A stretch of 57,439 bases of DNA from an uncultured Chitinophagaceae bacterium (GTDB lineage: Bacteria; Bacteroidota; Ignavibacteria; UBA10030; UBA8401): NCBI GenBank assembly GCA_964603685.1, contig CAZRWF010000010.1, forward strand, positions 1 to 57,439, written 5' to 3'. Of this stretch, positions 6,265 to 56,447 are shown piece after piece (position 1 is the first letter of the stretch; each line of letters opens with the position of its first letter). The notes beneath the pieces are model-generated. The model saw only the letters and a program-made list of their open reading frames with translations. It did no database searches and was not told where the DNA came from. The position numbers and the translations under genes are program-made.

Positions 6265-7039
6265 TTCCCTTTGAACCTTTCCGTGACGCAGACTGCAATC
6301 CGGCAATTTCTTCTTTTGTCAGCGACCGGATCTGTCCGGGCTGAAGATTTCCCAATTTTAACGAACCGATGGCGATCCTTCGCAACTCAATCACCGGAAA
6401 TCCGACGGCATCGAACATCCGGCGGATCTGCCGGTTTTTTCCTTCCACAACGGTGATCTCACACTGCGACACGTTGCCTTCGGAAAACATTTTGGCAATC
6501 GTGGCTGGGAGAGTCCGGTAACCGTCATCCAGCACGATACCGCCGGCCAATTCGGACAACACTTCCCGCGTCAGAATTCCCTCGCAGATCACTTCGTACG
6601 TTTTCGGCGTTTTGGATTCCGGATTGGTCAAAGTTTCCCCCAACTGTGAATCGTTGGTCATCAACAACGCTCCGGAGGTCTCTTTATCCAGCCGGCCGAC
6701 CGGGAAGATATGTCCGGAATCTTCCGTGCGGCGATACGCTGCGGAGAGGATATCATACACCGTTTTTCGTCCCCGCTCGTCGCTTCGTGTCGTCACGACG
6801 TCGGCCGGTTTGTTCATCAGAAGATAGAGGAACGTTTTTTCTTTTTTCACCGGTTCCCCCTCCACCGCGATTCGGTCCTTGAGCGGATCGACGCGGAAGG
6901 AGAGTGAATTTTTCACCGAACCGTTGACGGTAACTTTCCCGGCAGCGACCAATTTTTCCGCCTGACTGCGCGAACAAAATCCCAACTTGGATAGGGCGCG
7001 GGGCAGACTGACAACACGGGTGTCCTTTGGCGGTTTCAT
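6236..7039 (-). CDS. rRNA pseudouridine synthase, RsuA/RluB/RluE/RluF family, with S4 domain
   Basis: S4 domain ([16 protein letters not shown]), catalytic [22 protein letters not shown]. Confidence 0.92.
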
Positions 7040-22993: not shown

Positions 22994-23025
22994 CGGTTGT
23001 TCCGCTGCCGGAGATCGACCGCGGA

Positions 23026-31395: not shown

Positions 31396-31650
31396 TTAAG
31401 AAAAAGGAACCGCATCATTCACCATCTGCGGCATCTGTTTCGGCAGGTGCTCCACTCCGTCCCGGTGGAATTCGATGACTTCCCACGGACAGGCCCAAAC
31501 GCATTTCCGGCAGTTCGTACAACGATCCTCGATCAATGCGATTTTCGACTCCATCAGTTCAATCGCGTCTTCGGGACACACACCGACGCAGCATCCGCAA
31601 TAATCACATTTGCCGGGAACGATATGAATCATCAAATGGGGCTGCGGCAT
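31396..31650 (-). CDS. 2x[4Fe-4S] dicluster ferredoxin
   Basis: CDYCGCCVGVCP and CTNCRKCVWACP; TAATG-coupled to the FKBP gene (alternative start 31632). Confidence 0.9.
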   Translation of the reverse strand: MPQPHLMIHIVPGKCDYCGCCVGVCPEDAIELMESKIALIEDRCTNCRKCVWACPWEVIEFHRDGVEHLPKQMPQMVNDAVPFS

Positions 31651-32054
31651 TATTCAATCCCCAATAATTCTACTTCAAAGATCAACGTGGCATTCGGAGG
31701 AATCACGCCGCCGGCCCCTTGCCGGCCGTATCCCAATTCGGGCGGAATCGTCAATCGGCTTTTTCCGCCGACCTTCATTGTTCCGATGCCGTCATCCCAT
31801 CCTTGTATGACCTGGCCGACACCGAATTGATATCGGAACGGCTGACCGCGATCGACCGAACTGTCAAATTTTGTGCTGTCCGTCAGCCAACCGGTATAAT
31901 GGACGGTCACCAATTGGCCTTCTTTCGGTGTCACGCCATGGCCTTCCTTTAAAACTTCAACATTTACGCCAGATTTCGTCATAAATTTTTTGTTTCCGCA
32001 AGAAGAGACGAGAAGTGAAAACACTATCACGAAAATTATTGCTAGTTTTTTCAT
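31650..32054 (-). CDS. FKBP-type peptidyl-prolyl cis-trans isomerase (lipoprotein)
   Basis: Lipobox VSSC; VHYTGWL, FDSS, VIQGWDDG, IPPELGYG, IPPNATLIFEVELL. Confidence 0.93.
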   Translation of the reverse strand: MKKLAIIFVIVFSLLVSSCGNKKFMTKSGVNVEVLKEGHGVTPKEGQLVTVHYTGWLTDSTKFDSSVDRGQPFRYQFGVGQVIQGWDDGIGTMKVGGKSRLTIPPELGYGRQGAGGVIPPNATLIFEVELLGIE

Positions 32055-32074
32055 GAAATGTGAAATTTTTCCTT

Positions 32075-32103
32075 AAAATAAGGAAAAGAAGACCGACTTC
32101 CAA
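32075..32103 (-). promoter_or_regulatory. Putative sigma70 promoter for the FKBP-to-phoH operon
   Basis: Minus strand TTGGAA-N17-TATTTT, 20 nt upstream of the ATG at 32054. Confidence 0.5.
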
Positions 32104-32137
32104 AAATATTCCCGAAAACGGCATGTTTATTTAAAAT

Positions 32138-32169
32138 AAAAACTCCATTCATTTCTGAATGGAGTTTTT
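32138..32169. terminator. Rho-independent (bidirectional-type) terminator downstream of the HU gene
   Basis: Perfect 14-bp inverted repeat AAAAACTCCATTCA-tttc-TGAATGGAGTTTTT, 25 nt past the HU stop. Confidence 0.85.
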
Positions 32170-32194
32170 GAAAAATTACTGAATGATTCAGTAA

Positions 32195-32482
32195 TTACTT
32201 TTTACCAAGAATCGCATCTTTTGCAGCTTTTGCCACTTTGAATTTCACAACTTTTTTCGCAGGAATCTGAATCGTTTCGCCGGTAGCGGGATTGCGGCCA
32301 ATGCGAGCTTTACGATCCACCAAAACCAATTTACCGATTCCAGGGATGGTGAATTGATTTGCTGCTTCTTTATAGGCCAAAGTTGATAATTCTTCGAAGA
32401 ATTCCGTTACCACTTTCTTTTTCAATCCGAATTTATCGGCAAAATGGCTCGCGATTTGCGATTTCGACATTGCTTTTCCCAT
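32195..32482 (-). CDS. hup: HU family DNA-binding protein
   Basis: MSKSQIA..., IPGIGKL, RKARIGRNPATGETIQIPAKKVVKF; AGGAG upstream. Confidence 0.93.
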   Translation of the reverse strand: MGKAMSKSQIASHFADKFGLKKKVVTEFFEELSTLAYKEAANQFTIPGIGKLVLVDRKARIGRNPATGETIQIPAKKVVKFKVAKAAKDAILGKK

Positions 32483-32546
32483 ATGAACTCCTTTGATAAG
32501 TGAATTGGAAAATTTATTTAGTGTTTCTCTCTAACCAACTGGTGTA

Positions 32547-32575
32547 AATATATATTATTCATAAGGCAGTGTCAA
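32547..32575 (-). promoter_or_regulatory. Near-consensus sigma70 promoter of the HU gene
   Basis: Minus strand TTGACA-N17-TATATT with an AT-rich upstream tract. Confidence 0.75.
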
Positions 32576-32662
32576 TACAATGTTGAAAAAATCTTTATTT
32601 TATTGGTGTTTTTAAACCTTTCGCAAAAACTACGCCAATTCATTGAGGAAATTTTACCAACA

Positions 32663-32697
32663 AAAAACGGCTAATTTTATTCAAATTAGCCGTTTTT
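32663..32697. terminator. Rho-independent terminator between the membrane-protein gene and the HU promoter
   Basis: Perfect 15-bp inverted repeat AAAAACGGCTAATTT-tattc-AAATTAGCCGTTTTT. Confidence 0.75.
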
Positions 32698-32792
32698 AAT
32701 TGCCCGATTGAGTAAAAAATCACCGGTTTTCTACAGTAGAGGAAGAAAAAAATAATTCACTCTTTTCACCAATTATACCGGGATTTTGAGAA

Positions 32793-33149
32793 TTACCATA
32801 AAAAAGCAATAGCCGTAATAGTTATTGCTGAAACAAGGATGAGTATCAACGTCAACGGTTTTTGCGGTGCATTGTTCATCATCCTCTTCCGGTAGATCGT
32901 CGCCAGGACGGAAAGTTCTATCGCCAGTAACATTTTTATTCCCACTTTCATGTGGTTCACTTCGGACAACAGCAAAAAGAACAAAGCGAATCCGGTCAGC
33001 AATTGCGCATGGGAGGCGGACATGAGTACGGTGGCGAATTTTTTTCTCGTAGAGTCTGCCGCACTTTTATTGAGCAACAGTTGCAGTGAAAAAAGGATCA
33101 CGGCGGCCATTCCGGCCAGATGGAGAACGTACAATAGATGATGGATCAT
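32793..33149 (-). CDS. Hypothetical four-TM membrane protein
   Basis: 118 aa, four hydrophobic segments; HLAGM, SHAQLLTGF, HMKVGIK. Confidence 0.75.
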   Translation of the reverse strand: MIHHLLYVLHLAGMAAVILFSLQLLLNKSAADSTRKKFATVLMSASHAQLLTGFALFFLLLSEVNHMKVGIKMLLAIELSVLATIYRKRMMNNAPQKPLTLILILVSAITITAIAFLW

Positions 33150-33223
33150 GGTCACCCTTTCGAAATGATATATTGATTACAAAGGAATTTAACGATAATT
33201 TGTTGAAAACCTATTACAACCTC

Positions 33224-34291
33224 ATGTTTGAACAAGAGCTGGAAAATATTCAAAAAATCGCGGTCGGCCAGACGATCGGCAATACGACGGCGATCGCAAT
33301 GAAAACCATCCTGGAATCAAACATTCCGGCGAACATTAAAAGTTTCTTCCGGGCTGAGGTGGAAACGCAGTTGTTGCGGGAACGCCAAACCGAACGCCGT
33401 CCTTCCAAATTCGACTATTCGCAGCATGATGTACGGCTCCTGCAGGAGCAGATGGACGTGTTACTCGTCTATCATTATATTTTTTCGCGGGAAGAGTTTT
33501 TACGTGTACTGGATACCTGCACCCATTTCCTGTTTAACTACCTCTGCCGGCCGCAATGGACGCTGGAGAGTTATTTGTTTGAGGAAAAAAATATTCTCAC
33601 CGTTCCGGAACTGGCGGGCAAATTCCGGTATTGCTCCGACTATCCGTACTATTGGACGATCCTGGAAAAACATCTTTCCGCAAAGAACAAACAGGATCTC
33701 GAACGGGACGAAGCGGCGCGGCTTCTCCGCCGGATCGATGCGGAGGTCGTCGCTTCCCATTCGGCGGACGATCTGGCGAAGATGACCCTTCCGTTCTATG
33801 AATTTATCGGCTACATCCACCAGCATTCGTTTTCCGGCGGACGCGGCGACCTGCCCACGCGGGCATTGATCTATTTTTTTGAGGACAAAAAACTCCCCGC
33901 CGTGACGAACCATTTGACCTCGATGCGGGAACAGGGAAAACAATCGATCCTCTTCGACGAATTGGTGAACGCATTGAAAGATTCCTTCACGCAGAAAAGT
34001 TTTTCCGTGGCGGAAGAACTGGCGCAGGTCCGTCAGCCGCAGAAAAAAAGTTTTGCGCAGATACAGATCCCGGACCGGGATAAACTTTCCATCATTAAAT
34101 CCTTGTTCGGCAGCGATGAATCGAAGTATATTCAAATGATGGACAGCGTCCTCACCGCCCCCACCTGGGAGGATGCGGGATTGACTCTCGATCACTATTT
34201 TACGATGAATGACATCGATCCCTTTTCCCGGGAAGCGATCATCCTGACAAACGCACTTCAATCCTATTTCTCCAACAACCATTCCCGTTGA
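33224..34291 (+). CDS. Hypothetical cytoplasmic, mostly helical protein (355 aa)
   Basis: Long ORF with normal codon usage, divergent from the previous gene, 78 nt upstream of obgE; no recognised motif. Confidence 0.8.
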   Translation: MFEQELENIQKIAVGQTIGNTTAIAMKTILESNIPANIKSFFRAEVETQLLRERQTERRPSKFDYSQHDVRLLQEQMDVLLVYHYIFSREEFLRVLDTCTHFLFNYLCRPQWTLESYLFEEKNILTVPELAGKFRYCSDYPYYWTILEKHLSAKNKQDLERDEAARLLRRIDAEVVASHSADDLAKMTLPFYEFIGYIHQHSFSGGRGDLPTRALIYFFEDKKLPAVTNHLTSMREQGKQSILFDELVNALKDSFTQKSFSVAEELAQVRQPQKKSFAQIQIPDRDKLSIIKSLFGSDESKYIQMMDSVLTAPTWEDAGLTLDHYFTMNDIDPFSREAIILTNALQSYFSNNHSR

Positions 34292-34363
34292 AGGATGGCG
34301 GAGGAGAATTTTCCGTTCACCGGCACACTCACGCGCTCCACACACGGCGGCAAAAGAAAGTAA

Positions 34364-44044: not shown

Positions 44045-44088
44045 TGGGAATTCGATGGGCGAAGAAAAACGGTGTGTCCGTTGGATGG

Positions 44089-44164: not shown

Positions 44165-44884
44165 TCACTCGAACAAATATTTGACGCCGGCAGTAAATTG
44201 AAAGGATTGAATGCCGCTTACATTTTCCAGGTCCAGTTTAAGCGTCGGCCACAGTTCGCCGAGGATGATCTGATATTTTATCCCGACGGAGAGGAGCACC
44301 GGAGAGAACAGTGTTAACTCCGCATCTACGCCGAGATCGAGTCCGCCGCTCCAATCCCGCTGTGAAAGTGCGGGAACCTGAATATATTCGATCAATTTGA
44401 ATTTTTGCGATGTGGTTCCGGTATCAACCTTTACGGAATCGAAATACGCAGCCCGGGTAAAATTCCATTGATAAATCCCGAATCCCACTGTGGCGTTGAG
44501 ATCCGCAACGGCGGTCGACACCATGTTGTAGTTCGCCGTAACCCCGAGGGCGAAATATTCCATCTTCATATCGAACGATCGCAGCGGGAAGGTCAGGTCC
44601 CGCACTGTTCCATTCAGCGTGTCTTTCCGTTTAATGAAGAGTGCGTCCGTATTCTCCTTATCAAACACCGCATATTCCGCGAATCCGCCCCAGCGCGGAT
44701 TGTTATAACCGGCTTCGCGGCCGGAGAGGGCATAACCGAACGACGGCATCATCCGCCGTTCGAATGTTCCGGAGGGATGAATCGACATGAATTGACCGGA
44801 AAGAATTACGCTGCTGCTTTGCGACCATGTTACGGCCGGCAGGGCGGCCAAAACTGCGAACACTATGGATAATGTTGTTTTCAT
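44165..44884 (-). CDS. Outer-membrane beta-barrel protein (OmpA/OmpW-like, 8-stranded type)
   Basis: Signal peptide ...AVTWSQ; amphipathic strands; terminal VKYLFE; TGATG-coupled. Confidence 0.7.
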   Translation of the reverse strand: MKTTLSIVFAVLAALPAVTWSQSSSVILSGQFMSIHPSGTFERRMMPSFGYALSGREAGYNNPRWGGFAEYAVFDKENTDALFIKRKDTLNGTVRDLTFPLRSFDMKMEYFALGVTANYNMVSTAVADLNATVGFGIYQWNFTRAAYFDSVKVDTGTTSQKFKLIEYIQVPALSQRDWSGGLDLGVDAELTLFSPVLLSVGIKYQIILGELWPTLKLDLENVSGIQSFQFTAGVKYLFE

Positions 44885-45609
44885 CAATATCGGAAACTGA
44901 TCCCTCCGCCAATTGTTGCCGTTCCATTGAACGGATATTGATCGTATCCCCACTCTCCCGGCGTCGAGATCGTGAGACCGTACCGCACCGTGCCGTTAAG
45001 GTGGATAATCCTGGATACTCTCCAGACTGCGCCGACCGCAAGATGGGCCGTCACCGGATGTCCTGTTTTGGACGGGGCAAAATTGTGGAAGGTATATTCG
45101 AAGCGATGATTATCCGACGGAAATTTTTTAATCCAGCGTTCTTCATGATGAAGTTTCCGCGTGTAGAAAGAAACTCCCCCGCCAAGCGACGTGCGGAGAA
45201 ATAATTCTTCCGTCAACGGAAGATCGAGGATTGCGGAGAGTGTTACCGGCAGCACTTCCATCGATTGTACGGCGGTGACGCTGCCGGCATACGTCGCCGT
45301 GTCGCTGAGATAAATATTCACCCAGTTCCGGTACCGCCGATTCCAAATCTCCCATCCCCATTTGTTCGTTTCATCATCCTGATCGATCGCATATTGTTGA
45401 TATCCGAATCCGACGCTCCAGCGCAGATTGTCCGAAATCGCATATACCAATTCCGTCCCTCCGCCGATTCCCTGCGCATCGGTCACTCCGAATCGTTTTC
45501 CTATCGGCAGGCTGTAACCGGCTTGGGCGTTGATCTCCAGCAACTGAGCGGACGATCCGGATACCGCGAAAAGCAACATTGCAAAAATCACATATCGTTT
45601 GGCGATCAT
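44884..45609 (-). CDS. Outer-membrane beta-barrel protein (OmpA/OmpW-like)
   Basis: Signal peptide ...SGSSAQ; GYSLPIG, PVTLSA, LGGGVSFY; terminal ISFRY. Confidence 0.7.
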   Translation of the reverse strand: MIAKRYVIFAMLLFAVSGSSAQLLEINAQAGYSLPIGKRFGVTDAQGIGGGTELVYAISDNLRWSVGFGYQQYAIDQDDETNKWGWEIWNRRYRNWVNIYLSDTATYAGSVTAVQSMEVLPVTLSAILDLPLTEELFLRTSLGGGVSFYTRKLHHEERWIKKFPSDNHRFEYTFHNFAPSKTGHPVTAHLAVGAVWRVSRIIHLNGTVRYGLTISTPGEWGYDQYPFNGTATIGGGISFRY

Positions 45610-45610
45610 T

Positions 45611-46543
45611 TCACAGTCCTCCCGATACGCTGAAGCGGACGATCGTGCCCAGGCGTCCGTACGAAGAGAGAGAAAAATCGACTTCAACGGGAACAACAGC
45701 GCCGCCGTTGATCCCTATTCCTGCGTTGAATGATTCTTCATCGTAGAAAAATTTATACCCGCCGCGCAGCGATACCATCTTCATCCATCCGATCTCCGCG
45801 CCCACATTCACCCGCTCCGGCGCATCACTCGGATGCAGCGCCTCCCCCATCACGGTGATCCGCAGATCGGAATCCATCGTCCCCACCACTTCGGATGCGA
45901 CGCCGATGCGCAGCATCGTGGGCATGTGGAACGGATCGTTGATAAACTTTGCATCAGTTCCGAAATTGGACATGCTGGCGCCGAGACGGAGCGATTCGAA
46001 GCCGGTATAATAGATGATGCCGCCGTCGAACAAGATGTTCGATGCGCCGTATTCATGGATCTTTTCGTTCACATATTTCAGCCCGACGCCGAACGAAAAC
46101 CGGTCCGTTAATGCGGTGGAGTACGTAATTCCCATCGCCGTAGCATTGGCGGTAAAAGTTCCGGCAGCAAGAAACGATCGCGAGCCCGAAATTTTGTAGG
46201 TCAACGGAAACGTTCCGTAATCCAACATTACGGCATGGAAACCGAAATTTCCCGCTGCCGTCGCCACCGCATAAGCGGCGCCGTAATGTTTCGTCTCCGC
46301 AAACCAATCAGCGTAGGAGACCGTATAGGAATGCGCCGCCGTCATAAACCCGATCGATGCGGGATTCAGGAATAGACCTGCCGCTCCCATATCGGAGAGA
46401 GCAACGGTAGCTTCACTGAGAGCCGCCGTCCGCGCCGAAACAGGAATCTCCAAAAAAACGAATCCGGAGGTCGCCGTTTTCCGGAATTCCTGTCCGGCGG
46501 CGATCGTCACCAAGAGTGCAATATGGAGGAGTATTCGGTTCAT
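45611..46543 (-). CDS. PorV/PorQ (UPF0164)-like outer-membrane barrel
   Basis: ATSGFVFLEIPVSARTAALSEA, FLNPASI, GVGLKYV, NFGT, LRGGY. Confidence 0.82.
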   Translation of the reverse strand: MNRILLHIALLVTIAAGQEFRKTATSGFVFLEIPVSARTAALSEATVALSDMGAAGLFLNPASIGFMTAAHSYTVSYADWFAETKHYGAAYAVATAAGNFGFHAVMLDYGTFPLTYKISGSRSFLAAGTFTANATAMGITYSTALTDRFSFGVGLKYVNEKIHEYGASNILFDGGIIYYTGFESLRLGASMSNFGTDAKFINDPFHMPTMLRIGVASEVVGTMDSDLRITVMGEALHPSDAPERVNVGAEIGWMKMVSLRGGYKFFYDEESFNAGIGINGGAVVPVEVDFSLSSYGRLGTIVRFSVSGGL

Positions 46544-48612
46544 CGGATGATGGCGAATTTGCCGATCTTTTTTCCGGACGGGGCATCAACATGAAAGATA
46601 TAGACACCGCTCTCCGCAAACTGTCCGAAGTCGGTCTGTTGATTCCAGCCGACGATCCCTCCGAAGGAAGAAGAAACGTCGATCGTTTTCACCAAATCGC
46701 CCCGCACCGTATAAATCCGAATGGTGCACGGATTCGGGACATTCGTAAACAGAATCTCATCGTTGGCGCCGACTTGGGAAGATCCTTTCGAAATCACGAA
46801 GGGATTGGGAACGACAAGAATATCGTTCACGGCGGCTGCCGGCGGGATAGTCATTTTGAACGGACGGACCATCCGGTTGGCATAGATCGACGATTCGAGC
46901 GGCGGAACACGTTTCGACGGAGTTCCACCGGGAGTAAAGGTAATGTTGATCGTTGAACCGTTCACCACCCAGGCCGCTTTTCCCGTATCGTACGCCGTCA
47001 CGGCATAATAATAGTTCGTGCCGATGTCCCCCGTTGAATCGATGAAGGAATATTTTTGCGTCGTCGCGTTGTAATACGACGGATGACCTTTGACGACGGT
47101 GCCGACCAGCTGCCACGGTCCGGTCGGGAGATGGAACGACCGGTACACGCGGTATCCGGCAAGATCGAGCGTATTGTCGTCGGGATCGGGAATACTTTCG
47201 GATTCTGTTCCCCACGACAGCACCGTAGCGGCGAATTTTTCACGGATCCTCAGGAATTCCGTCGTGAACGCCGGCGGCACCGGTGGATCGGGGTGATTGA
47301 GATTGTAGTTCCAGGTGAGTTGGGCATTGTTGCTGGATTGGAAATATTTTTGATAACTTGCGTTCGCAAAACTCGGCCGCGATCCGAACCACAACGAATC
47401 CTCCACGCCGTCCACGATCTCTGCAAAACCGATCCGGATCGAATCGCCCGGCGCCAGCGTCCAGGGCCCGAGCTGCATCATGGACCACATGCGCGTCCTT
47501 CCCGGATAGGTGACGTCGGAATAATTTCCGACAAAGGCATTGGCGTTGGCGATGTCGGAGAGGAAATTGTACCGCGCTTCCAACGAACCGATATTCGTCA
47601 CCGGTCCGCTGAGATCGACCGAGTTGCTCCCACCCGACCAGCCGAAACGCGAAACAAAACTCGGTTCGCCGAACTGCGACTCCGGCGAAGCATACAGCAG
47701 TTTGATCCCCACGTAGGCCGGGGAGAGATATTCACCGACCGGATTTCCGTTCACGCGGTACCCCTGCGTGGAAACGTACCCCAGCGGCTGGTCCTCCGAT
47801 GATTCCTTGTAATCTCTTCCGTATCCGAAGATCATCCGTTGATTGGAATCGCTGCCGAAGAACCAATTGCGCGCACCGGCCGTCAGTTGCGGGAACATCA
47901 CCGACCAGGCGCGGGAGTTGCTGTGCAGCGCGTAATTGAAGACAATCCGCAATCCGAACAGCGTGTCGACGGTGTGGGAATTGACCGGAACGATCTCGTT
48001 CGAAATATTTTTAATGACATAGTCGTAGATGAGATAATTTTCGTCGCGGCGCGAACCGTTCCATTGATGGACGGAACGTGTGACCCGGACGGGAAGCACC
48101 GGAAACAGTTCATCCGGATCGACCTGTGAAATGAATCCCGGATTGTATTCCCATTGGCTTTCGATCACCTCTTCCCCTTCGCGCTGCGACCGCTGCATGC
48201 CCCAGTTCTCCCCGCGGGGATATTTGTGCCGGTGTTTCTTCAGTGAATATTTTGCATTCAGTTCGGCGGAGATCGTCGAACCATAAAGCGACCAATCCTC
48301 CACGGCGATGATGGTGTCACCCTGCTTTTTGGCGCCGATAAAAAATCCTCCGGTAACGAGATGCGATGCCGGGCCGCCGATATCTTCGCTGATCCATGCC
48401 GCATCAAAACCGGGCCAGTCCAACCCGATGCCGCGCCTTCCCCAGTTGGCGAAGTTCGGTCCGCTTTTTCCGTTAAATACGCTGTGCCAGAGCATTCCCC
48501 GCGTAAAACTGAGCGACGGAGAGGAGACAAGCGTATCGGTCTGCCCCGACAACGGCAAAAACGATACGATACACGCGGCAACCATCATTTTTGTAAAAAT
48601 CCGCACGGTCAT
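46540..48612 (-). CDS. Secreted 690-aa protein of unknown function with Fn3-like module and FlgD-Ig/T9SS-like C-terminal domain
   Basis: Signal peptide; Fn3-like VLSWG...DLAGYRVYRS...YAVTAYD; CTD ILVVPNPF...CTIRIYTVRGDLVKTI...SGVYIFHV...GKFAIIR; TAATG-coupled to the TBDR. Confidence 0.75.
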   Translation of the reverse strand: MTVRIFTKMMVAACIVSFLPLSGQTDTLVSSPSLSFTRGMLWHSVFNGKSGPNFANWGRRGIGLDWPGFDAAWISEDIGGPASHLVTGGFFIGAKKQGDTIIAVEDWSLYGSTISAELNAKYSLKKHRHKYPRGENWGMQRSQREGEEVIESQWEYNPGFISQVDPDELFPVLPVRVTRSVHQWNGSRRDENYLIYDYVIKNISNEIVPVNSHTVDTLFGLRIVFNYALHSNSRAWSVMFPQLTAGARNWFFGSDSNQRMIFGYGRDYKESSEDQPLGYVSTQGYRVNGNPVGEYLSPAYVGIKLLYASPESQFGEPSFVSRFGWSGGSNSVDLSGPVTNIGSLEARYNFLSDIANANAFVGNYSDVTYPGRTRMWSMMQLGPWTLAPGDSIRIGFAEIVDGVEDSLWFGSRPSFANASYQKYFQSSNNAQLTWNYNLNHPDPPVPPAFTTEFLRIREKFAATVLSWGTESESIPDPDDNTLDLAGYRVYRSFHLPTGPWQLVGTVVKGHPSYYNATTQKYSFIDSTGDIGTNYYYAVTAYDTGKAAWVVNGSTINITFTPGGTPSKRVPPLESSIYANRMVRPFKMTIPPAAAVNDILVVPNPFVISKGSSQVGANDEILFTNVPNPCTIRIYTVRGDLVKTIDVSSSFGGIVGWNQQTDFGQFAESGVYIFHVDAPSGKKIGKFAIIR

Positions 48613-51600
48613 TAGAATCCCAATCCGATCGTCAAGAAGATTTGCCGGGGAATGTTCCGGAACGCCCGGTACGGCGCGACGCGATAGCTGATCCTGTTCG
48701 GATCGAGGCCGGGATCTTCCATCGTAATCCCCCGCTCGATCCAATCGGCAACGTCATTCCGGATGTCCATCGGCGTCAAAAGTTTGTTGTTGAACAGGTT
48801 CATCACCCGGAGCCCGAGAAGAAAAGAAAATCCTTCCAGCGAAATACTTTTTTGCGCGCTGAAATCGAACAACGTCTCCAGCGGATACCGGCGGTTGTTC
48901 ACCACATCCTTCAGATCGAACGACGTCACATAAGTGAGCGGTGCGCCGGATTGCAGCGAATAGGTAAGGCCGACATTCATGTTTTCGAACGGATACAGCC
49001 CCAGGATCTCCGCCCCTTCTTCGTTCGACAATGAATAACTGATCAGCGCACGGAGGTTATGCGTTCGATCGGAATAAGAAAGATAATCGCCGATATAATC
49101 GCGCGAGACAAGATTGGTATTGGCGGGATAGATCGTCTGGTCGCCGTAATTTCCTTCGGTGGATTGGGAGAGATTGTAGCTCAGTCGGTATCCCCATCGG
49201 CTGATCCCGATTTTTTCGAAGGTCACTTCCAATCCGGTCGTCGCCCCGTACGCATTGTTCGCATACGTCGTATAATAATACAGATCGGTAAGATCGTTCG
49301 TTTTTCCGGCCGGGCGGTTGATGCTGCCCGAATACGCCGCCACTGTCTGCAGTCCCACCTGACTTACACGATCGTTGTAATACAACGCCACATCCAATCG
49401 ATGTGTTTCCCGGATCACTTGCTGCACGCCGAATTCATAATTGATCGTCTTTTTCGGACGCAAGTTCGGATTTCCGCGGCCTGTCCAGCCGTTTTCCGTT
49501 CGCTGCGACAGCGCCTGACTGAAGATCGGCATCGATGAAAAATGACCGTATTGAATCCGGAAGGCAGTGTTCTCTCCCACCGGGAACGACAATCCCAACC
49601 GCGGCAGAACGGTGTATTGCAGTTCGGATGTTTTGGTCAACGGATTTCCACGGATACCGGAGCCCGATTCGCCCTGATAGTATGGATTAAAAAGATCGAC
49701 GGGAGTCTGCACCTGAAAATTGTACGTTTCCAACCGCACACCGAGATTGGCAACCATGCCCGAATACTCCATCTTATCCTGAATATAGAGTGAGGCAGTG
49801 AACGGATATGCGCGGTAATGCTCCGCAAATCCGGTCCGCGAAACGTAGGCATTCGCGAGAAAATTGGAATTGACGCCGGTATTGGTCATGTCCCAATAAT
49901 AAAAACGGGCGCCGGCTTTGAAGAGATTCGTCGGCAACAATTGATTCGTGTAGTCGACGCTGATGTTGGTGTGGTCGGTCCGGTTATCCTGAAAATAATT
50001 CGTGCTGAAGTTGAACGGCGCCCGGAAATAATCCTTCTCCCACCATTGACCGTCCCGCAGCACCACTCCGCCGTCCCGGTCGTAGAGACTGTCCAGCCGG
50101 TCGGCGGACTGTTCGTACCCGTACAAAAATTCGTACGGGAGTTCATATTTTTCGTATTGATGCGAAACGGTCGCTTCGAGGAATGATTGCGGATTGACGG
50201 TGTAGACCCAATTGATGCTTTGCGTCGTGGTCTGTTCCGTCCGGACCGGGTCGACGGTGACGTAATATTTGGTGGAGGTTCCGGGCGGCGAGAATGCGAT
50301 CCCCGACCATCGGATATCGTCCGAACCGGACCAGATGCCGCCGCGGTACCGCTGGTACATCCCCATCAGTTTGATCTTGTGATTGGCAGCGGGAAGATAC
50401 GTGACGCTCAGAATGTAATTGTGGAAGACCTGATTTTTTTCCGGTGTCGGAAGCCGTGTCGGATTTTTCCGGTATTCGCCGGATAGATAAAATTTCAACA
50501 GCTCGGGATCGGCGCCGAGCGGTCCGCCGAATCCGAAGAGGATTCTGTTGTACGCGTATTGCCGATAGTCGTATACGCCGAACGGATTGTCATCCGCCGG
50601 CGTATGATTTTTTAACCACACACCGTGCGCCCATTCCAGTTCCCGGCGGACGATGGAATAATAGGCCGCGGAATCGGCGGAGGAGTTGTTCCGCCGGTCG
50701 AAAAGATATTTATACCGGTTCTGCGAATCCAATCCGAGTTCGGTCGCCAACGCGTCGCGGCGTTCCCACCATTTGTCGAACGTTCCCCACTTTTGCCACT
50801 CATAATTCGACCGATCGTACAAATATTTGTTGAAATGATATTGGCCGGGAGGACGATATTCCAGACGGACCTCTCCGGAAAATTTCGGCGTTCCGTCCTT
50901 CGTCACCACTTTGACGACACCCGCCTGGGCGTTTCCGTATTCCGCCGCGAAGCCGCCGGAGATAAGCTGCATTTGCTGCACTGCAATCGGGTTGACGTCA
51001 TACTTCCAGGAATTGTTCGCTTTGTCGCTCCCGAACGATCCGGGTGAACTGGTGGAAACGTTCACCTGATCAACGCCGTTGATCTGAAAATTCACTTCAT
51101 AGGAACCGGATCCCCGAACGCTGTAATTTCCGGTGGCGGTCTTCTGGAAACTGGCAGAGAGGTCCAACGCACCGCGGGTCCCTTCCACCGGCGCCGTCCG
51201 GATCTGCGTTGCGTCGATGGTCTGCGCCGTGGATGTTTGATCGCGAACGATCTTCGGCTTTTGGGCCACCACGACCACTTCGGTGAATTCCACCGTCGAT
51301 TCCTTCAGCAAAAAATCGAGATTCGTCGTCCGATCAATAAAGATGTCCACGCCGGTTTGCGTCGAACGGGCATACCCCAGCAGTGTGGCGGTGACGGAAT
51401 AATTCCCGGGGGGAATGTTTAAGATGAAATAATTCCCGTCGATGTCGGATATGCCTCCCAGTTTTGTCCCTTCCACGATGATATTCACGCCGGGTAGCGG
51501 ATCACCGGAGCGTTCATCGGTGATGGTGCCGGAAATTTTTCCTTTTTGTGACTGGGAAAAAAGTACACCGGCACACACAACGATCGGAAGGGTCAGAAAA

Positions 51601-51617
51601 AAAAGAGAACGGCGCAT
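48612..51617 (-). CDS. TonB-dependent receptor with N-terminal carboxypeptidase-regulatory-like domain
   Basis: GKISGTITD...LPGVNIIVEGT...GNYFILNIPPG; plug GGFAAEYGNAQAGVV; barrel PRLGLSFP, GNPNLRPKKT; terminal IGLGF. Confidence 0.92.
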   Translation of the reverse strand: MRRSLFFLTLPIVVCAGVLFSQSQKGKISGTITDERSGDPLPGVNIIVEGTKLGGISDIDGNYFILNIPPGNYSVTATLLGYARSTQTGVDIFIDRTTNLDFLLKESTVEFTEVVVVAQKPKIVRDQTSTAQTIDATQIRTAPVEGTRGALDLSASFQKTATGNYSVRGSGSYEVNFQINGVDQVNVSTSSPGSFGSDKANNSWKYDVNPIAVQQMQLISGGFAAEYGNAQAGVVKVVTKDGTPKFSGEVRLEYRPPGQYHFNKYLYDRSNYEWQKWGTFDKWWERRDALATELGLDSQNRYKYLFDRRNNSSADSAAYYSIVRRELEWAHGVWLKNHTPADDNPFGVYDYRQYAYNRILFGFGGPLGADPELLKFYLSGEYRKNPTRLPTPEKNQVFHNYILSVTYLPAANHKIKLMGMYQRYRGGIWSGSDDIRWSGIAFSPPGTSTKYYVTVDPVRTEQTTTQSINWVYTVNPQSFLEATVSHQYEKYELPYEFLYGYEQSADRLDSLYDRDGGVVLRDGQWWEKDYFRAPFNFSTNYFQDNRTDHTNISVDYTNQLLPTNLFKAGARFYYWDMTNTGVNSNFLANAYVSRTGFAEHYRAYPFTASLYIQDKMEYSGMVANLGVRLETYNFQVQTPVDLFNPYYQGESGSGIRGNPLTKTSELQYTVLPRLGLSFPVGENTAFRIQYGHFSSMPIFSQALSQRTENGWTGRGNPNLRPKKTINYEFGVQQVIRETHRLDVALYYNDRVSQVGLQTVAAYSGSINRPAGKTNDLTDLYYYTTYANNAYGATTGLEVTFEKIGISRWGYRLSYNLSQSTEGNYGDQTIYPANTNLVSRDYIGDYLSYSDRTHNLRALISYSLSNEEGAEILGLYPFENMNVGLTYSLQSGAPLTYVTSFDLKDVVNNRRYPLETLFDFSAQKSISLEGFSFLLGLRVMNLFNNKLLTPMDIRNDVADWIERGITMEDPGLDPNRISYRVAPYRAFRNIPRQIFLTIGLGF

Positions 51618-51638
51618 GGAGCGATGGGAAAGTGAGCA

Positions 51639-51664
51639 GCGCACCGGACCGGAATCCGGTGCGC
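51639..51664. other. Intergenic GC-rich stem-loop between the T9SS propeller gene and the TBDR gene
   Basis: 10-bp perfect stem GCGCACCGGA-ccggaa-TCCGGTGCGC, with no clear U-tract on the minus strand. Confidence 0.55.
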
Positions 51665-51672
51665 CGGTAAAA

Positions 51673-53106
51673 TCATTTTATCAACATCATTTTTTTGGTG
51701 TATGTACCAAGCGGAGTGATCAACGAATAAAAATAGACCCCCGACGGGAGTGCGCCGGCGGTAAAGACCTCGTTGTGTTTCCCGGCTTCCCGGTACCCCT
51801 CTGCGACGACGGCCACAGTCTGGCCGAGCGCATTAGACACCGTCAATTTTATGTTGCCGGAACGGGACAAGGTGTATCCGATCAATGTGGATGGGTTGAA
51901 CGGATTGGGATAGTTTTGCTGCAACGTGAACGAATGAGGGATATTTTTTTCCTCTTCCACAGAGGTGGTGGCGGTTGTGAACTTGTATTGATAAACCGAC
52001 CGGGTGTAAATATCGACTACGTACGCCGTGAGTGCATCCGGGGTTAAGGCGACATCTCCCGGCGCGCGCAGCGGTGCGCCGTTCGTGTCGGGATTGGCCC
52101 CGCTGTATTTGGAAGGAAGTTCATAACGTTCGGATGCGAACGAACCGCCGGCGACATCGAACGCCTTCACCCAGCGTTTGAGCGAATCGGTTCCGGCCAC
52201 CCAGAGCCGTTTATTTTTGTCGACGGTGATGCCGTACGGAATATTCGTCGAGAAGGTGAGATATCCGGTCAGATCCGCAACACGTTGGCTGGTGTAATTG
52301 GCGACACTGGTACCGGGAAATTGTTTACCCTCCGTCCAGCTGGCGATACCTCCCGTCACGTTCCCGTCCGACTGTGAATTACGCGAAGTGTACAACACCA
52401 TCGTCGAATCATAATAACTGCTCCCGGGAACGAGTGCCACATCACGAATCACATCCACACCGCCGGTGTGCGTGCCGCCGACTTCCACTTTACTTTCACC
52501 GATCCACGCGCCGCGGATCGGCGAGGTGATACTGTTGGTCAGATTATACGTTCGCACGAACGGACCCGGTCCACCCGCACCGGCGGTCACCCCGGTGAAA
52601 GCAATCGTGTCTTTCGACACCGCCACACCGTGGCTGAACGTTCCATGTCCGGGATTCGAAAAATAAAATCCGAACTTGGAGACTTTCGTCGTATCACCGT
52701 CGATATAATAGTACATGGAACTGACCGTACTCGGTTTCGACCGTTGGAAAGGAACGCTCGAATTGATGATAATGTCGTTATTCAGAGCCGAAATACCGCG
52801 GATGGAACCGATATTGCCGGTGAGAGTATCGGACTCTCCGTTTTTGTGGAAGTCGATCATCAATTTCATCACCGTGTCGGTGGAATCGGCGTAATAAATG
52901 GCATTGTGTGCTCCGACGGTCGTCGCGGCAGAGGTCGCCACATACAGCCGGCCGGATGCCGTCACCGTGCAGAGATACGGAACGGCAAACGAGGTGTCGC
53001 TCGCCGGAAACTTTATCTCCCGCATATACCGCCACTTGGGCAGCTGCGAATATGTAGAGGAAATCAACAGGACGGACAGCAGGACCAAAACATTGAAGCG
53101 TTTCAT
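51673..53106 (-). CDS. T9SS type A sorting domain protein with NHL-like beta-propeller
   Basis: AAGGAG SD; signal peptide; blades PYLCTVTASGRLYVA, PYGITVDKNKRLWVA, PGDVALTPD; canonical CTD LQQNYPNPFNPST...LPSGVYFYSL...KKMMLIK. Confidence 0.88.
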   Translation of the reverse strand: MKRFNVLVLLSVLLISSTYSQLPKWRYMREIKFPASDTSFAVPYLCTVTASGRLYVATSAATTVGAHNAIYYADSTDTVMKLMIDFHKNGESDTLTGNIGSIRGISALNNDIIINSSVPFQRSKPSTVSSMYYYIDGDTTKVSKFGFYFSNPGHGTFSHGVAVSKDTIAFTGVTAGAGGPGPFVRTYNLTNSITSPIRGAWIGESKVEVGGTHTGGVDVIRDVALVPGSSYYDSTMVLYTSRNSQSDGNVTGGIASWTEGKQFPGTSVANYTSQRVADLTGYLTFSTNIPYGITVDKNKRLWVAGTDSLKRWVKAFDVAGGSFASERYELPSKYSGANPDTNGAPLRAPGDVALTPDALTAYVVDIYTRSVYQYKFTTATTSVEEEKNIPHSFTLQQNYPNPFNPSTLIGYTLSRSGNIKLTVSNALGQTVAVVAEGYREAGKHNEVFTAGALPSGVYFYSLITPLGTYTKKMMLIK

Positions 53107-53143
53107 CGCAACTCCTTGAGGTTTTCGTGAGGAATGATATAAA

Positions 53144-53172
53144 ATGGTAGGGATTAATGGCGGAAAAAGCAA
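53144..53172 (-). promoter_or_regulatory. Putative sigma70 promoter of the T9SS/TBDR locus
   Basis: Minus strand TTGCTT-N17-TACCAT. Confidence 0.5.
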
Positions 53173-53267: not shown

Positions 53268-53289
53268 AAAAAAGGCGCCGAAGCGCCTT
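53268..53289 (-). terminator. Rho-independent terminator
   Basis: Minus strand AAGGCGC-TTCG-GCGCC followed by TTTTTT (cUUCGg tetraloop plus U-tract). Confidence 0.85.
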
Positions 53290-53535: not shown

Positions 53536-53696
53536 CCATTACCCCCCATAGTGTGAATTGTTTACCCTCAGTATAATTGAATTTACCATTTAGTCTGTGA
53601 CTAATATCATTGGAGGATGCAACCATCACTCGACATAGGTTTCAAATAAAAAAGGGGAAATTTCTTTCCGTTTTTTGTATCTTTAGTCAATATTTT

Positions 53697-56447
53697 ATGC
53701 TCACGAAACTCGACCGTCGCACCTTATTCATCATCGTTTTCTGTTTCCTCCTCATTGCTCCGTCGGCGGGCCAGGAAAAATCGTTGCGGATCACCCCTTC
53801 CGTTTCTTCATCGGGTATCGATTCCCTCTCAGGCATTTATTTTGCTCCGACACAACGGCCGAAAATTTGTCTCGTGTTGAGCGGCGGCGGTTCCCGCGGA
53901 TTTGCCCATTTGGGCGTCATCAAAGAACTGGAGCGCAACAATATCCCGATCGATTTTATCGTCGGCACCAGCATCGGCGGGATCATCGGCGGATTATATG
54001 CGTCCGGTTATTCGACCGATGATCTCCAACGTCTGGTCGATACCACCGATTGGGGATATATTCTCTCCCTCACGCAGGACAATGAACGTGAAGATCTCTA
54101 CCTCGCACACAAAGTATCGGCCGACCGGAAACAACTGACAGTCCGCTTCGACGGACTCACTCCGGTCCTCCCGTCGGCCATTTCCAGCGGACAGCGGCTG
54201 ACCAATTTTATCAATCAACTCACCCTGCAAAGCCTGTATCACCCCGTCCGCAATTTCGACGATCTGAAAATTCCGTTTCGTTGTGTGTCGACGGATCTGA
54301 TCTCCGGCACCCAAATGGTCTTTTCGTCAGGAAATCTCTCCGAAGCATTGCGGGCAAGCATATCGATTCCTTTGTTGTATCACCCGTTGAAAAAGGATTC
54401 TCTCTCGCTCACCGACGGCGGGTTGATCTCGAACATTCCGGTGGATGTGGCGCGGAAACTCGGCGCGGATATCATCATTGCGGTCAACACCGTCAGCCCG
54501 CTCCGCACGGCCGAACAACTCAACTATCCGTGGGAAGTCACCGACCAGATCGTCAACATCATGGCGCAGGAAAAGAACCGACGCTCGCTCGAAGAGGCGA
54601 CGATTGTCATCACTCCCGACCTCGGTTTTTATCCATCCGTCGATTTTTCCCAATTAAATTTTGTCGTACAACAGGGAGTGTATGCCGCCGGACAGCAGAT
54701 GAAGGCCCTTCGCGACAGCATACGATTCCGGCAGAACCGTTTGTGGACCGATCAGTCCCCCCTCACCTCCTTTTCGATGAATATCGGATCGGTGCGGGTC
54801 GATTCTGCGGTCGGACCGGATGAAAGAGCGATCTTCTCCCGCAATGGACGGAATGTCACGTCGCAACAATTACAACAGGCGGTCACCGCCGTGTATGCCG
54901 CCGGATGGTACTCCGAGGTGAGCGCCGACATTCGGTTCGCCGATACGTCCGCCGATGTTTCAATTTCCGCCCGACGAAATCCGGAATTGCGCCGGGTGAT
55001 GTTTCGGGAAAATTATTTGATTGATTCCGCAGCGCTGCACTCTCCGTTTGATTCCCTCGTCAACAAACCGCTGAACCTTCCGAAACTGCAGAAGGCGTTT
55101 GAACATCTGTTGTCCCGGTATCGCAGCGCCGGATATTCCCTCGCCCGCGTCCGGTCGACGTCGTTTGATTCCGCCAGCGGAACGTTGACCGTCACCCTTA
55201 ACGAAGGGAAGATCGCGAAGATCTATTTTCGCGGGAAAGAAACGACCCGGGACTGGGTGATCCGCCGGGAATTGGAGTTTCGCGACGGCGACCTCTTCAC
55301 GGTCGACAAAGGGAAACAAACGCTGGTGAACCTCTACGGCACAAACTTGTTCAATCAAGTATTGATGGATGTCAGCTTTGAGGATGCCGAACCGGTGATC
55401 ACCATCCACATGGATGAAAAACCGACGGAGGTTTCGCGGCTCGGATTCCGGCTGGACAATGAGCGAAATCTCCAGCCGTCGGTCGAGTTCCGGAACGAAA
55501 ACCTGCTCGGTACGGCGACCGAAGCCGGCGCCAGTTTCTCGGGGGGATTAAAAAACAGGAGGTATGTGGCTGATTTTCAGGCGAACCGGATCTTTAATTC
55601 GTACCTGACGTTCAACATGGACCTCTATTATGATGTCCGGGACATTTTCACCTACGAAAATGACCCGTTCCGCACGAACCGGAAGTCGTTCGACCGGTCT
55701 CGCGTGGGAGAGTACCGACAGATCCTCTACGGCGTTCTTTTCCAACTCGGGCAACAGGTGGAACGGCTGGGAACGGTGGACGTGGAATATAAACTTGAAG
55801 CGGACGAGATTAAATTTATTTCGGGACGCGGATATCAACCGGAAAAATTCACACTGCAGGCGATCCGGGTGAGTTCGACAATCGATTCCCGGGACCGGTA
55901 TCCGTTCGCCCGGAGCGGGTCGCTGTCGCATTTTTCGTGGGAGACCGCCATCTCCACACTGAAAAGCGTCGTCGGCGACGTCGGATATTCCAAAATCTAT
56001 TTTTCGTACGAAACGAATACCTCCTACGAACGATTTACGCTCCATCCGCGGCTCATCATCGGATTCGGCGATCAAACGCTTCCCCTGACGCAGCAGTTCG
56101 CCATGGGAGGCGAGGAATCGTTCTACGGATTGCGGGAATACAACACGCGCGGGCGGCAGATCTTTCTGACGAGTCTCGGGCTCCGAACCAAATTCCCTTT
56201 TACGCTCATATGGGATACCTACTTACGTTTGCGGTATGATTTCGGAAATCTCTGGCCGCAGCGTGAAGATATCCGCATCCGCGATTTTCATCACGGCATC
56301 GGAGCGGGGTTGTCGCTGGACACTCCCGCGGGCCCGGTGAATGTGTCGATCGGAAAAAGTTTTTATGTCCGTCGGGACCTGCTGGAACAACCGTTCACGC
56401 TCGGTCCGACGATCGCCTACTTCTCGCTCGGATATCCTCTTTTTTAA
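53697..56447 (+). CDS. Patatin-like phospholipase fused to POTRA domains and an Omp85 barrel (PlpD/type Vd-like)
   Basis: Signal peptide; LSGGGSRG, GTSIG (GxSxG), DGG; POTRA segments (RELEF...); terminal YFSLGYPLF. Confidence 0.88.
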   Translation: MLTKLDRRTLFIIVFCFLLIAPSAGQEKSLRITPSVSSSGIDSLSGIYFAPTQRPKICLVLSGGGSRGFAHLGVIKELERNNIPIDFIVGTSIGGIIGGLYASGYSTDDLQRLVDTTDWGYILSLTQDNEREDLYLAHKVSADRKQLTVRFDGLTPVLPSAISSGQRLTNFINQLTLQSLYHPVRNFDDLKIPFRCVSTDLISGTQMVFSSGNLSEALRASISIPLLYHPLKKDSLSLTDGGLISNIPVDVARKLGADIIIAVNTVSPLRTAEQLNYPWEVTDQIVNIMAQEKNRRSLEEATIVITPDLGFYPSVDFSQLNFVVQQGVYAAGQQMKALRDSIRFRQNRLWTDQSPLTSFSMNIGSVRVDSAVGPDERAIFSRNGRNVTSQQLQQAVTAVYAAGWYSEVSADIRFADTSADVSISARRNPELRRVMFRENYLIDSAALHSPFDSLVNKPLNLPKLQKAFEHLLSRYRSAGYSLARVRSTSFDSASGTLTVTLNEGKIAKIYFRGKETTRDWVIRRELEFRDGDLFTVDKGKQTLVNLYGTNLFNQVLMDVSFEDAEPVITIHMDEKPTEVSRLGFRLDNERNLQPSVEFRNENLLGTATEAGASFSGGLKNRRYVADFQANRIFNSYLTFNMDLYYDVRDIFTYENDPFRTNRKSFDRSRVGEYRQILYGVLFQLGQQVERLGTVDVEYKLEADEIKFISGRGYQPEKFTLQAIRVSSTIDSRDRYPFARSGSLSHFSWETAISTLKSVVGDVGYSKIYFSYETNTSYERFTLHPRLIIGFGDQTLPLTQQFAMGGEESFYGLREYNTRGRQIFLTSLGLRTKFPFTLIWDTYLRLRYDFGNLWPQREDIRIRDFHHGIGAGLSLDTPAGPVNVSIGKSFYVRRDLLEQPFTLGPTIAYFSLGYPLF

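Follow-up and report, generated by a model that had tools for sequence, protein, structure and literature searches.

A conserved TonB-dependent transporter cassette of Ignavibacteria as a candidate alternative to the SusC/SusD uptake pair

The 57,439-bp contig CAZRWF010000010.1 (assembly GCA_964603685.1), referred to here in its whole length as the window, carries a six-gene envelope locus that looks like an undescribed alternative to the SusC/SusD uptake pair. Judged from sequence, its core consists of three co-inherited parts: a TonB-dependent transporter (TBDT; gene B), a predicted all-beta surface protein with a type IX secretion system (T9SS)-type C-terminal domain (CTD; gene C), and an outer-membrane barrel of the PorV/PorQ family (gene D). 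The reading we lean towards, with modest confidence, is that of a TonB-dependent import complex in which T9SS exports the surface partner and a dedicated PorQ-like barrel, rather than a lipid anchor, holds it in place. Within this reading we infer the retention of the CTD, the docking of C on D, the contact between B and C, the direction of import and the substrate.

The open reading frames (ORFs) of the locus share the minus strand and span 53172..44165 in the ORF list of the window. Gene A (53106..51673) encodes 477 aa from an ATG at 53106 with an AAGGAG ribosome-binding site. It is followed by B (from a GTG at 51644 or an ATG at 51617 to 48612; about 1000 aa), C (48612..46540; 690 aa), D (46543..45611; 310 aa), E (45609..44884; 241 aa) and F (44884..44165; 239 aa). 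An earlier note on this DNA had described six co-oriented envelope genes, the last five joined by very short junctions, and both descriptions are confirmed, the first by the ORF list and domain matches and the second by direct reading of the sequence: TAATG at B/C, ATGA at C/D, TGA-A-ATG (1 nt) at D/E and TGATG at E/F. The overlapping start and stop codons argue for co-translation from B to F, which appears to be the firmly coupled unit. All six proteins and their orthologs carry a signal peptidase I (SPI)-type signal peptide with Gln at position +1, which fits the Q-rule; Ignavibacterium album has a Q-value of 77% (PMC5837995). Inspection of the signal peptides, orthologs included, found no conserved lipobox in any of the six, and none of the six genes matched a SusD, carbohydrate-active enzyme (CAZyme) or regulator family among the Pfam and NCBIfam models. 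The proposed lack of a SusD lipoprotein is upheld by these negatives and by the folds described below, since C is modeled as all-beta, E and F are barrels and A gives propeller-type matches only. That the locus is without a regulator also stands.

Conservation of the cassette and its triad

The cassette is real and is conserved across Ignavibacteria, the class that accounts for nearly all of the 80 relatives compared. A scan of one genome per species returned 171 genomes with a relative; the best 80 of the 171 were used for synteny, which was counted by tblastn. In 70/70 loci the gene immediately upstream of C is B, in 76/76 the one immediately downstream is D, and in 68/68 D, E and F stand in that order. 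Conservation of gene order had been set beforehand as a test of the proposal and held across these 80 species-level loci, by which chance adjacency was rejected. Homologs of C form more than 120 clusters at 46-72% identity, and the named ones derive from metagenome-assembled genomes (MAGs) of Ignavibacteria, Ignavibacteriales and Melioribacteraceae. Some cassette-bearing MAGs (L003, L047 and L082 among them) are labelled Chitinophagaceae, Acidobacteriota or Synechococcus; the cassette is Ignavibacteria-typical, and these labels probably reflect mislabelled bins or contaminant contigs.

Beyond these orthologs, the core recurs as a triad. When 1.84 billion representative proteins were searched with a profile, 7425 matches came up, 116 of them below 1e-30, and many of the matches cover no more than the distal region of C or its CTD alone. 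Seven non-orthologous loci, picked via C-like bodies or via a CTD of the C class (described below) only, make up all those with readable context. In 7/7, a TonB-dependent receptor (TBDR) with an N-terminal extension (NTE) is followed by a C-like protein and a PorV-like barrel. Because each component is 24-35% identical to its counterpart among B, C and D, the three appear to have diverged together. Locus L083 continues from the triad into unassigned proteins of 198 and 1112 aa, GFO_IDH oxidoreductases and an FG-GAP protein. L086 consists of an OMP_b-brl gene, the TBDR, the C-like gene and a PorV-like fragment cut by the contig end. In L087 the triad stands between an ABC sugar transporter, a CBM9+CTD protein and an alcohol dehydrogenase on one side and GH106, PfkB, RbsD/FucU, an aldo-keto reductase and a further glycoside hydrolase (GH) on the other. 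L089 has an FGE-sulfatase and a small barrel before the triad and a TPR/GWxTD protein after it, while L090/L091 has an A-like fragment before and an A-like protein after. The partner is 1025 aa long in L092, where LacI precedes the triad and NPCBM, GH98 and a sensor kinase follow, and 1248 aa long in L093, where an ordinary-CTD cargo and a 358-aa protein come first. F-like barrels lie upstream of the TBDR in L086 and L089. The partners in all seven distant triads carry the C-class CTD (45-77 bits) and the ordinary cargo in these loci carries the ordinary class, which suggests that the CTD class of C is tied to a neighboring PorV-like gene.

In most relatives of the window the cassette is also accompanied by enzymes. 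One or more GHL10 genes come directly after F in 56/66 loci, in a layout that typically begins with a 373-aa protein without CTD (GHL10a) and continues with one to three ~627-aa proteins combining GHL10, Golvesin_C and Por_Secre_tail (GHL10b). The CTD-less enzyme is probably periplasmic. The window and its closest relative, L003, share the order A-B-C-D-E-F-RsmB. Because GHL10 follows F in so many relatives and not in these two, the missing CAZyme reflects a lineage-specific loss at this site; the earlier statement that no CAZyme is present is correct for the window locus and incorrect for the clade. The only GHL10-domain gene of the window lies 38 kb away (6052..4136, minus strand; 638 aa, PF02638 E 3e-22). 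Its product has the GHL10 domain behind an unassigned N-terminal region of ~300 aa, is 29% identical to the GHL10a of the relatives, and could be the enzyme partner of the locus, moved to another site. A PfkB sugar kinase gene (3207..4118, minus strand) adjoins it. An enzyme beside a transporter, which defines a polysaccharide utilization locus (PUL) in the broad sense, is lacking in the window and present in the relatives and the paralogous triads.

Other recurrent neighbors in the relatives are DUF5009, NanE and a ROK/NagC-like regulator; we take DUF5009 to be NagX-like. About 26 loci also share a traveling block made up of a 491-aa protein without a family, a ~720-aa hydantoinase/oxoprolinase-like ASKHA protein and PF12831 FAD oxidoreductases. 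The block is mostly divergent upstream of A (for example L002 1..5228, L034 3822..5297 and L082 488..3635), lies downstream of F in L011-L016 and L032, and is absent from the examined part of the window. As for GHL10 itself, Cwp19 is a peptidoglycan lytic transglycosylase (PMC6016235) and DogH converts starch to maltose (PMC9967864). Given the lytic-transglycosylase activity reported for GHL10 together with the DUF5009, NanE and ROK neighbors, the likeliest substrate of the cassette would be an amino-sugar glycan, either peptidoglycan debris or an exopolysaccharide.

The same surroundings could be explained by a housekeeping envelope module that serves the turnover or remodeling of the cell's own peptidoglycan or exopolysaccharide, or by an adhesion or structural complex, with the TBDT recovering the cell's own breakdown products or acting as a scaffold. 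Such a role would suit a cassette kept as one highly conserved copy across an entire class, the place of the window copy among housekeeping genes (RsmB, UvrA), the FN3 domain in C and the action of the GHL10 enzyme Cwp19 on the cell's own peptidoglycan (PMC6016235). It is harder to square with the paralogous triads, which stand in catabolic contexts (GH106, PfkB and FucU mutarotase in one; LacI, NPCBM and GH98 in another), and with the relatives in which NanE, a ROK regulator and a NagX-like gene link the cassette to catabolism or salvage. We therefore regard a housekeeping role as unlikely.

The transporter, its partner and the barrels

The earlier description of B as a TBDR of ~1000 aa is well supported. 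Its CarbopepD_reg_2 (71 bits), Plug (29.2 bits, cut-off 23.9) and OMP_b-brl_3 (42.2 bits, cut-off 27) domains all score above the Pfam cut-offs, and B has both the plug and the 22-strand-type barrel domain that are looked for in a TBDT. Relatives and paralogs of B also match TonB_dep_Rec_b-barrel. The SusC/RagA model TIGR04056 gives 71.9 bits against a cut-off of 368 and aligns at model positions 2-216 (NTE and plug) only, so that B is not a member of the SusC family. A TonB-box-like motif, EVVVVA (51264..51281, minus strand; residues 122-127 counted from the GTG), lies between NTE and plug; (Q/E)VVVVA is kept in at least 70/76 B orthologs and is a candidate TonB box, assigned by inspection and position. 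Relatives of B found by sequence in the Protein Data Bank (PDB) are isolated NTE domains only. Together these features point to a TBDT with the Oar/SusC-type order of NTE, candidate TonB box, plug and barrel.

This architecture raises the possibility of transport in the opposite direction. As an export device, B would move a protein (C, A or another) outward by TonB energy, as with Oar and PopC in Myxococcus, and D, E and F would be outer-membrane accessories. The domain order of B (CarboxypepD_reg NTE, plug, barrel) is indeed that of Oar; however, the same order dominates the TBDTs of Bacteroidetes, the importer SusC included. C and A already bear T9SS export signals, and the neighboring enzymes and sugar-catabolic genes fit import. 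On balance, export is very improbable.

Turning to C, no Pfam family was matched. An AlphaFold2 (AF2) model (pLDDT 74, pTM 0.74; about 110 residues below 50) is all-beta and comprises an N-terminal beta-supersandwich (~30-440), an FN3 domain (~445-545) and a seven-strand C-terminal sandwich. Foldseek relates the N-domain to the N-terminal supersandwich of the GH94 cellobiose, chitobiose and laminaribiose phosphorylases and of dextran dextrinase (E ~1e-5, for the GH94 match 7e-6; TM 0.21-0.27), and many FN3 proteins are found among the matches. The idea that C itself might be SusD-like was rejected on account of the all-beta model. PDB sequence searches with C, E and F gave no informative match.

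The CTD of C (46543..46830, minus strand; about residues 595-690) is the proposed tether to D. The earlier note had called C a 690-aa CTD protein, and the length is right. The CTD of the window copy scores 14.9 bits on TIGR04183, below the cut-off of 23; in the family, 19/30 members match TIGR04183 at E<0.01 (best 3.7e-5), and two C orthologs carry the NCBI name T9SS type A. Mean column identity is 0.73 in the CTD of C and 0.55 in the rest of the protein, as compared with 0.52 versus 0.51 in A and 0.46 versus 0.56 in GHL10b. The CTD is thus the best-conserved part of C, whereas those of A and GHL10b are no more conserved than the remainder of their proteins. Hidden Markov models (HMMs) built from the last 95 residues separate the classes further. 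C orthologs score 125-184 bits with the C-class HMM, with which the CTDs of A and GHL10b reach 1-25 bits; C CTDs score 2-21 bits on the A and GHL10b models, and the A and GHL10b classes cross-score at ~100 bits. By these scores the CTD of C forms a class apart from the ordinary T9SS cargo CTDs. Among NCBIfam models, the C-terminus of PorZ is matched by 22/30 C-family members (best E 5e-10) and that of PorU by 16/30. PorZ and PorU are the two T9SS proteins with retained CTDs, bound by PorQ and PorV respectively, and a review has proposed that cognate PorV-like barrels shield CTDs from cleavage (PMC10202324).

The C-class CTD is also seen on many otherwise unrelated proteins of 600-1250 aa (P0201-P0265). 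Two such carriers were checked, L092 8001..11078 and L093 6646..10392, and each lies between a TBDR and a PorV-like gene. A large family of such loci may be recognizable by this CTD.

The PorV-like barrel announced by the earlier note is D, which scores 162.2 bits on the PorV/PorQ family model NF033709 (cut-off 90) over residues 25-307. On the equivalog models it scores 102.7 bits for PorQ (NF033711, cut-off 220) and 53.7 bits for PorV (NF033710, cut-off 250); since neither cut-off is reached, D is considered a PorV/PorQ paralog, by score closer to PorQ than to PorV and with a predicted FadL-like barrel. Its nearest solved structure is Flavobacterium johnsoniae PorV bound to SprA (6h3i_F, E 5.5e-5). 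No match to the PorP/SprF families was found in the Pfam and NCBIfam scans of the locus proteins.

Could C and D simply be the Ignavibacterial PorZ and PorQ, core T9SS attachment genes that stand by chance beside a TBDT? The CTD of C does match the PorZ model, and D matches PorQ better than PorV. However, C reaches only 18.5 bits against 260 on the PorZ equivalog NF052228, through its last ~95 residues (the CTD) alone, and D reaches 103 against 220. The supersandwich and FN3 body of C is a further obstacle, PorZ (5m11) ranking 47th in Foldseek at a probability of 0.38. Divergent paralogous triads with bodies of 620-1250 aa would not be expected of a single core component. True orthology was rejected on these three grounds (equivalog cut-offs, body fold and the many paralogous triads), and we rate it the least probable of the explanations considered.

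A more serious contender is that the TBDT imports alone and that D is a dedicated shuttle of the PorV type, which collects C, and perhaps A, at the translocon. C would then be cleaved and released or anchored by glycolipid, to serve as a binding protein or enzyme with a loose attachment or none, and the gene linkage would reflect no more than a common pathway. PorV is described as shuttling many cargos in a passage that cites Glew 2017, the nearest solved relative of D is PorV in its complex with SprA, and the ordinary CTDs of A and GHL10b indicate normal T9SS traffic in these organisms. However, a pairing of one shuttle with one cargo, as seen in 76/76 orthologous and 7/7 non-orthologous loci, is foreign to the general PorV. 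In C, conservation is higher in the CTD than in the body, which does not hold for the ordinary CTDs encoded nearby. The CTD of C is like those that PorZ and PorU retain, and D has a higher score for PorQ (103 bits) than for PorV (54 bits). A shuttle without retention therefore seems improbable, though it ranks first among the rivals.

The two remaining genes encode the ~240-aa barrels that the earlier note had recognized. E was modeled by AF2 from 58 homologs (pLDDT 91.3, pTM 0.82) as a small outer-membrane beta-barrel with a helical insert (~80-100) and two long strands, and Foldseek places it in the OmpA class, with matches to the OmpA transmembrane domain (9fzd_A, E 3.9e-9, TMt 0.70), NspA, Ail and OmpW (to 1e-5). 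F aligns with E over its full length in hhalign (probability 94%, E 1e-7) and matches Pfam OMP_b-brl below the cut-off (E 9e-4, residues 8-238). F is an ancient, distant paralog of E, through which its small-barrel class is assigned. Recent duplication was rejected, as blastp gives no match between the two and their kinship is seen at the profile level only.

Gene A, transcription signals and flanks

By sequence and synteny, gene A is a loosely attached accessory gene. It lies directly 5' of B in 36/62 loci, and a hairpin or terminator stands between the two. It occurs elsewhere in the locus in 5 cases, and about 40% of relatives are without A upstream. The earlier description of A as a T9SS beta-propeller holds in its first half. 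Its CTD is of the ordinary T9SS type A (TIGR04183, 37.4 bits, cut-off 23; PF18962, 27.2 bits, cut-off 27), Por_Secre_tail is matched by 26/26 A orthologs, and of the CTD models in NCBIfam only the generic cargo ones are matched. The propeller signal consists of sub-threshold SGL, NHL, SBBP and Reg_prop matches, in at best 10/26 orthologs. A cyanovirin-N match (E 0.002) was dismissed as spurious, since the profile of A orthologs gives weak WD40 and propeller matches instead.

The hairpin between A and B (51636..51666, minus strand) is a perfect 13-bp GC stem that comes right after the A stop codon and has no U-run. With a dG of -27.8 kcal/mol (z -4.2), it was matched in stability by 0/200 shuffles and is unique in the window. 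Because it overlaps the mechanical GTG start of B (51644), B probably starts at ATG 51617 (MRRSLFF...). At the same site L003 (CAYJMS010000001.1) has a canonical U-run terminator (6941..6975), ~25 nt before the B start. A would therefore be its own unit or B-F would be expressed by attenuated read-through, an arrangement that suggests differential expression of A and B-F. Upstream of A, a predicted intrinsic terminator (53289..53272, minus strand; a 7-bp stem with 5 GC pairs, then TTTTATT) would end the transcript of an upstream small ORF and set the upstream boundary of the locus. A promoter scan found no sigma-70-like site on the minus strand upstream of A; it returned 9 sites in total against 12 in shuffles and, having fewer sites than shuffles, is uninformative for this organism. 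The single promoter proposed for all six genes thus gains no support from the scan, and the strong hairpin separates A from B. A hairpin after F (44082..44068) is weak and not more stable than shuffles.

Downstream, the flank consists of the housekeeping genes RsmB, a TPR protein, DUF58 and UvrA. These co-oriented genes were rejected as operon members, being housekeeping genes that are syntenic with the cassette in the closest relative only. The GC content of the locus equals that of the remaining window, and scans of the window found no Rfam family or tRNA. Divergent from the locus, 53610..56447 (plus strand) encodes 945 aa in which a patatin-like phospholipase is fused to POTRA repeats and an Omp85 barrel, a layout that we take for that of PlpD-like type Vd autotransporters. 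Another protein with POTRA and Omp85 (602 aa) is encoded at 21221..24444 (minus strand), where its gene overlaps that of a GWxTD-domain protein (472 aa), and a TPR/GWxTD protein lies 3' of the PorV-like gene of the paralogous triad in L089 (11777..14329). A recurrent link of GWxTD proteins to POTRA/Omp85 and triad envelope modules is possible. Finally, the stretch ~31400..34300 has a GC content of 0.42 as compared with about 0.54. It carries ORFs for an FKBP-type isomerase-like protein, an HU-like DNA-binding protein and a small membrane protein, as well as a 401-aa ORF (33086..34291, plus strand) without a Pfam match; scans of the stretch for tRNAs, Rfam families and tandem repeats were negative.

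A proposed import complex and what it would mean

In the reading we favor, an import complex with a T9SS-exported partner, all six proteins would cross the inner membrane by Sec, and C would then be exported over the outer membrane by T9SS via its CTD. The CTD would stay uncleaved and would receive no glycolipid anchor, docking instead on the barrel D in the way that PorZ docks on PorQ and PorU on PorV. The supersandwich and FN3 body of C would thereby be held over or beside B, where C could bind and possibly process a glycan before passing it to B, the job that SusD does for SusC, with TonB powering uptake. E and F may serve as small OmpA-like barrels with a structural role within the complex, while A would be an ordinary propeller-like T9SS cargo and an accessory surface factor. 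In the relatives, a CTD-less GHL10 enzyme in the periplasm and a CTD-bearing one at the surface, both acting on the polymer, would complete a PUL-like logic.

Several points weigh against this import complex. CTD retention is argued from conservation and from likeness to PorZ and PorU only, the C-D and B-C contacts are deduced indirectly, and the roles of E and F are left unexplained. The fold match of C is weak (TM 0.21-0.27, pLDDT 74, ~110 residues below 50). Present once and throughout the class, the cassette is strongly conserved (mean column identity of B, C and D 0.56-0.60), and since typical PULs are patchy, a housekeeping role in the envelope is possible. In the window, neither an enzyme nor a regulator nor an inner-membrane transporter adjoins the cassette. 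TBDTs of the architecture of B include Oar, on which protein secretion depends (PMC6434023). The standing of GHL10 as a CAZy family is unsettled, and its two reported activities differ. No core T9SS gene was found among the ORFs scanned in the 57-kb contig, that is, in the whole 57,439-bp window. For the wider group, T9SS in Ignavibacteriae has been suggested by BLAST (PMC5837995), and CAZymes of M. roseus bear Por sorting domains (PMC3534657).

Comparison with known systems helps to place the cassette. Like SusC/SusD (RagA/RagB), it has a ~1000-aa TBDT with a CarboxypepD_reg-type NTE, a candidate TonB box and a plug, encoded directly 5' of an obligate surface partner, and its relatives and paralogous loci have genes for predicted surface and periplasmic glycosidase-like proteins, regulators and sugar-catabolic genes nearby. 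Unlike that pair, its TBDT has a barrel that falls outside the SusC model beyond the N-terminus. Its partner is all-beta, 620-1250 aa long, without a lipobox and with a T9SS-type CTD, whereas SusD is an all-helical lipoprotein, and a third obligatory gene, the PorV/PorQ paralog, is present together with small barrels. SusD-less carbohydrate loci centered on a TBDT exist as well, for example the CUT loci of Xanthomonas. Neither these nor the Oar-class TBDTs, which share the NTE-plug-barrel architecture of B and of which Oar itself is implicated in secretion, are known to have an obligatory T9SS-type partner or a PorV-like barrel.

The closest likeness for C and D is to PorZ-PorQ and PorU-PorV, in which the CTD stays on a surface protein and a FadL-like barrel of the PorV/PorQ family holds that protein (PMC10202324); here, retention would be the same by analogy. 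C and D differ from these pairs in lying below the equivalog cut-offs, in having a C body unrelated to PorZ or PorU, and in being genetically joined to a TBDT in many paralogous versions. The type B CTD with PorP/SprF barrels (SprB-SprF) offers another case of a special CTD class with a cognate adjacent barrel in place of PorV (PMC10202324). In contrast, D is a PorV/PorQ-family protein, the C-class CTD is a type-A-like beta-sandwich, and the link is to uptake rather than to gliding adhesins. A structural precedent for a D-C-B arrangement is BamG-BamH of the Bacteroidota BAM complex, where a 14-stranded FadL-like barrel holds a surface protein via extracellular loops and packs on a larger barrel (PMC12578637). 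The likeness drawn here is one of arrangement, and BamH, unlike C, is a lipoprotein in a complex that serves outer-membrane protein assembly.

How far the earlier idea of an alternative utilisome can be carried depends on which part is considered. The recurring triad and the dedicated CTD class strengthen its core; the loose attachment of A and the presence of SusCD in the clade call for corrections. Since SusCDE occurs in M. roseus (PMC3534657) and susCD PULs of Ignavibacteriae are among the predictions of PULDB (PMC5753385), the cassette would be a parallel system and not a replacement forced by an absent SusD. In the literature searched, most subscription journals being outside the search, no account was found of a module that joins a TBDR to a T9SS-CTD partner and a PorV-like barrel. 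A broader proposal, which we put forward tentatively and with less assurance than the import complex itself, is that the cassette represents a widespread and undescribed class of TonB utilisome in Ignavibacteria and further bacteria with T9SS-type sorting domains. In it the SusD role would be taken by variable all-beta proteins, each with a dedicated CTD subclass, exported by T9SS and held permanently on cognate PorQ-like barrels whose genes adjoin that of the transporter. Type IX secretion would then become a prerequisite for the assembly of nutrient importers, beyond its part in enzyme release, and the C-class CTD with its PorV-like neighbor would mark such loci in genomes.

TonB-dependent glycan uptake in Bacteroidota is understood almost wholly through SusC/SusD and lipoprotein partners. 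If the import complex is true, there would be a second way to build a surface-capped TBDT, by means of a protein tethered through its T9SS sorting domain to a dedicated barrel. Two signature machineries, T9SS and the TBDT, would then be joined in one assembly pathway. Because PUL prediction tools look for the susCD pair, loci of this kind are invisible to them. The order NTE-TBDR, C-class CTD protein, PorV-like barrel would provide a search key for carbohydrate-uptake loci in Ignavibacteria, which are common scavengers of polymers and necromass in sediments, bioreactors and hot springs. In addition, the GHL10-linked cassette could point to the natural substrate of the poorly characterized GHL10 family.

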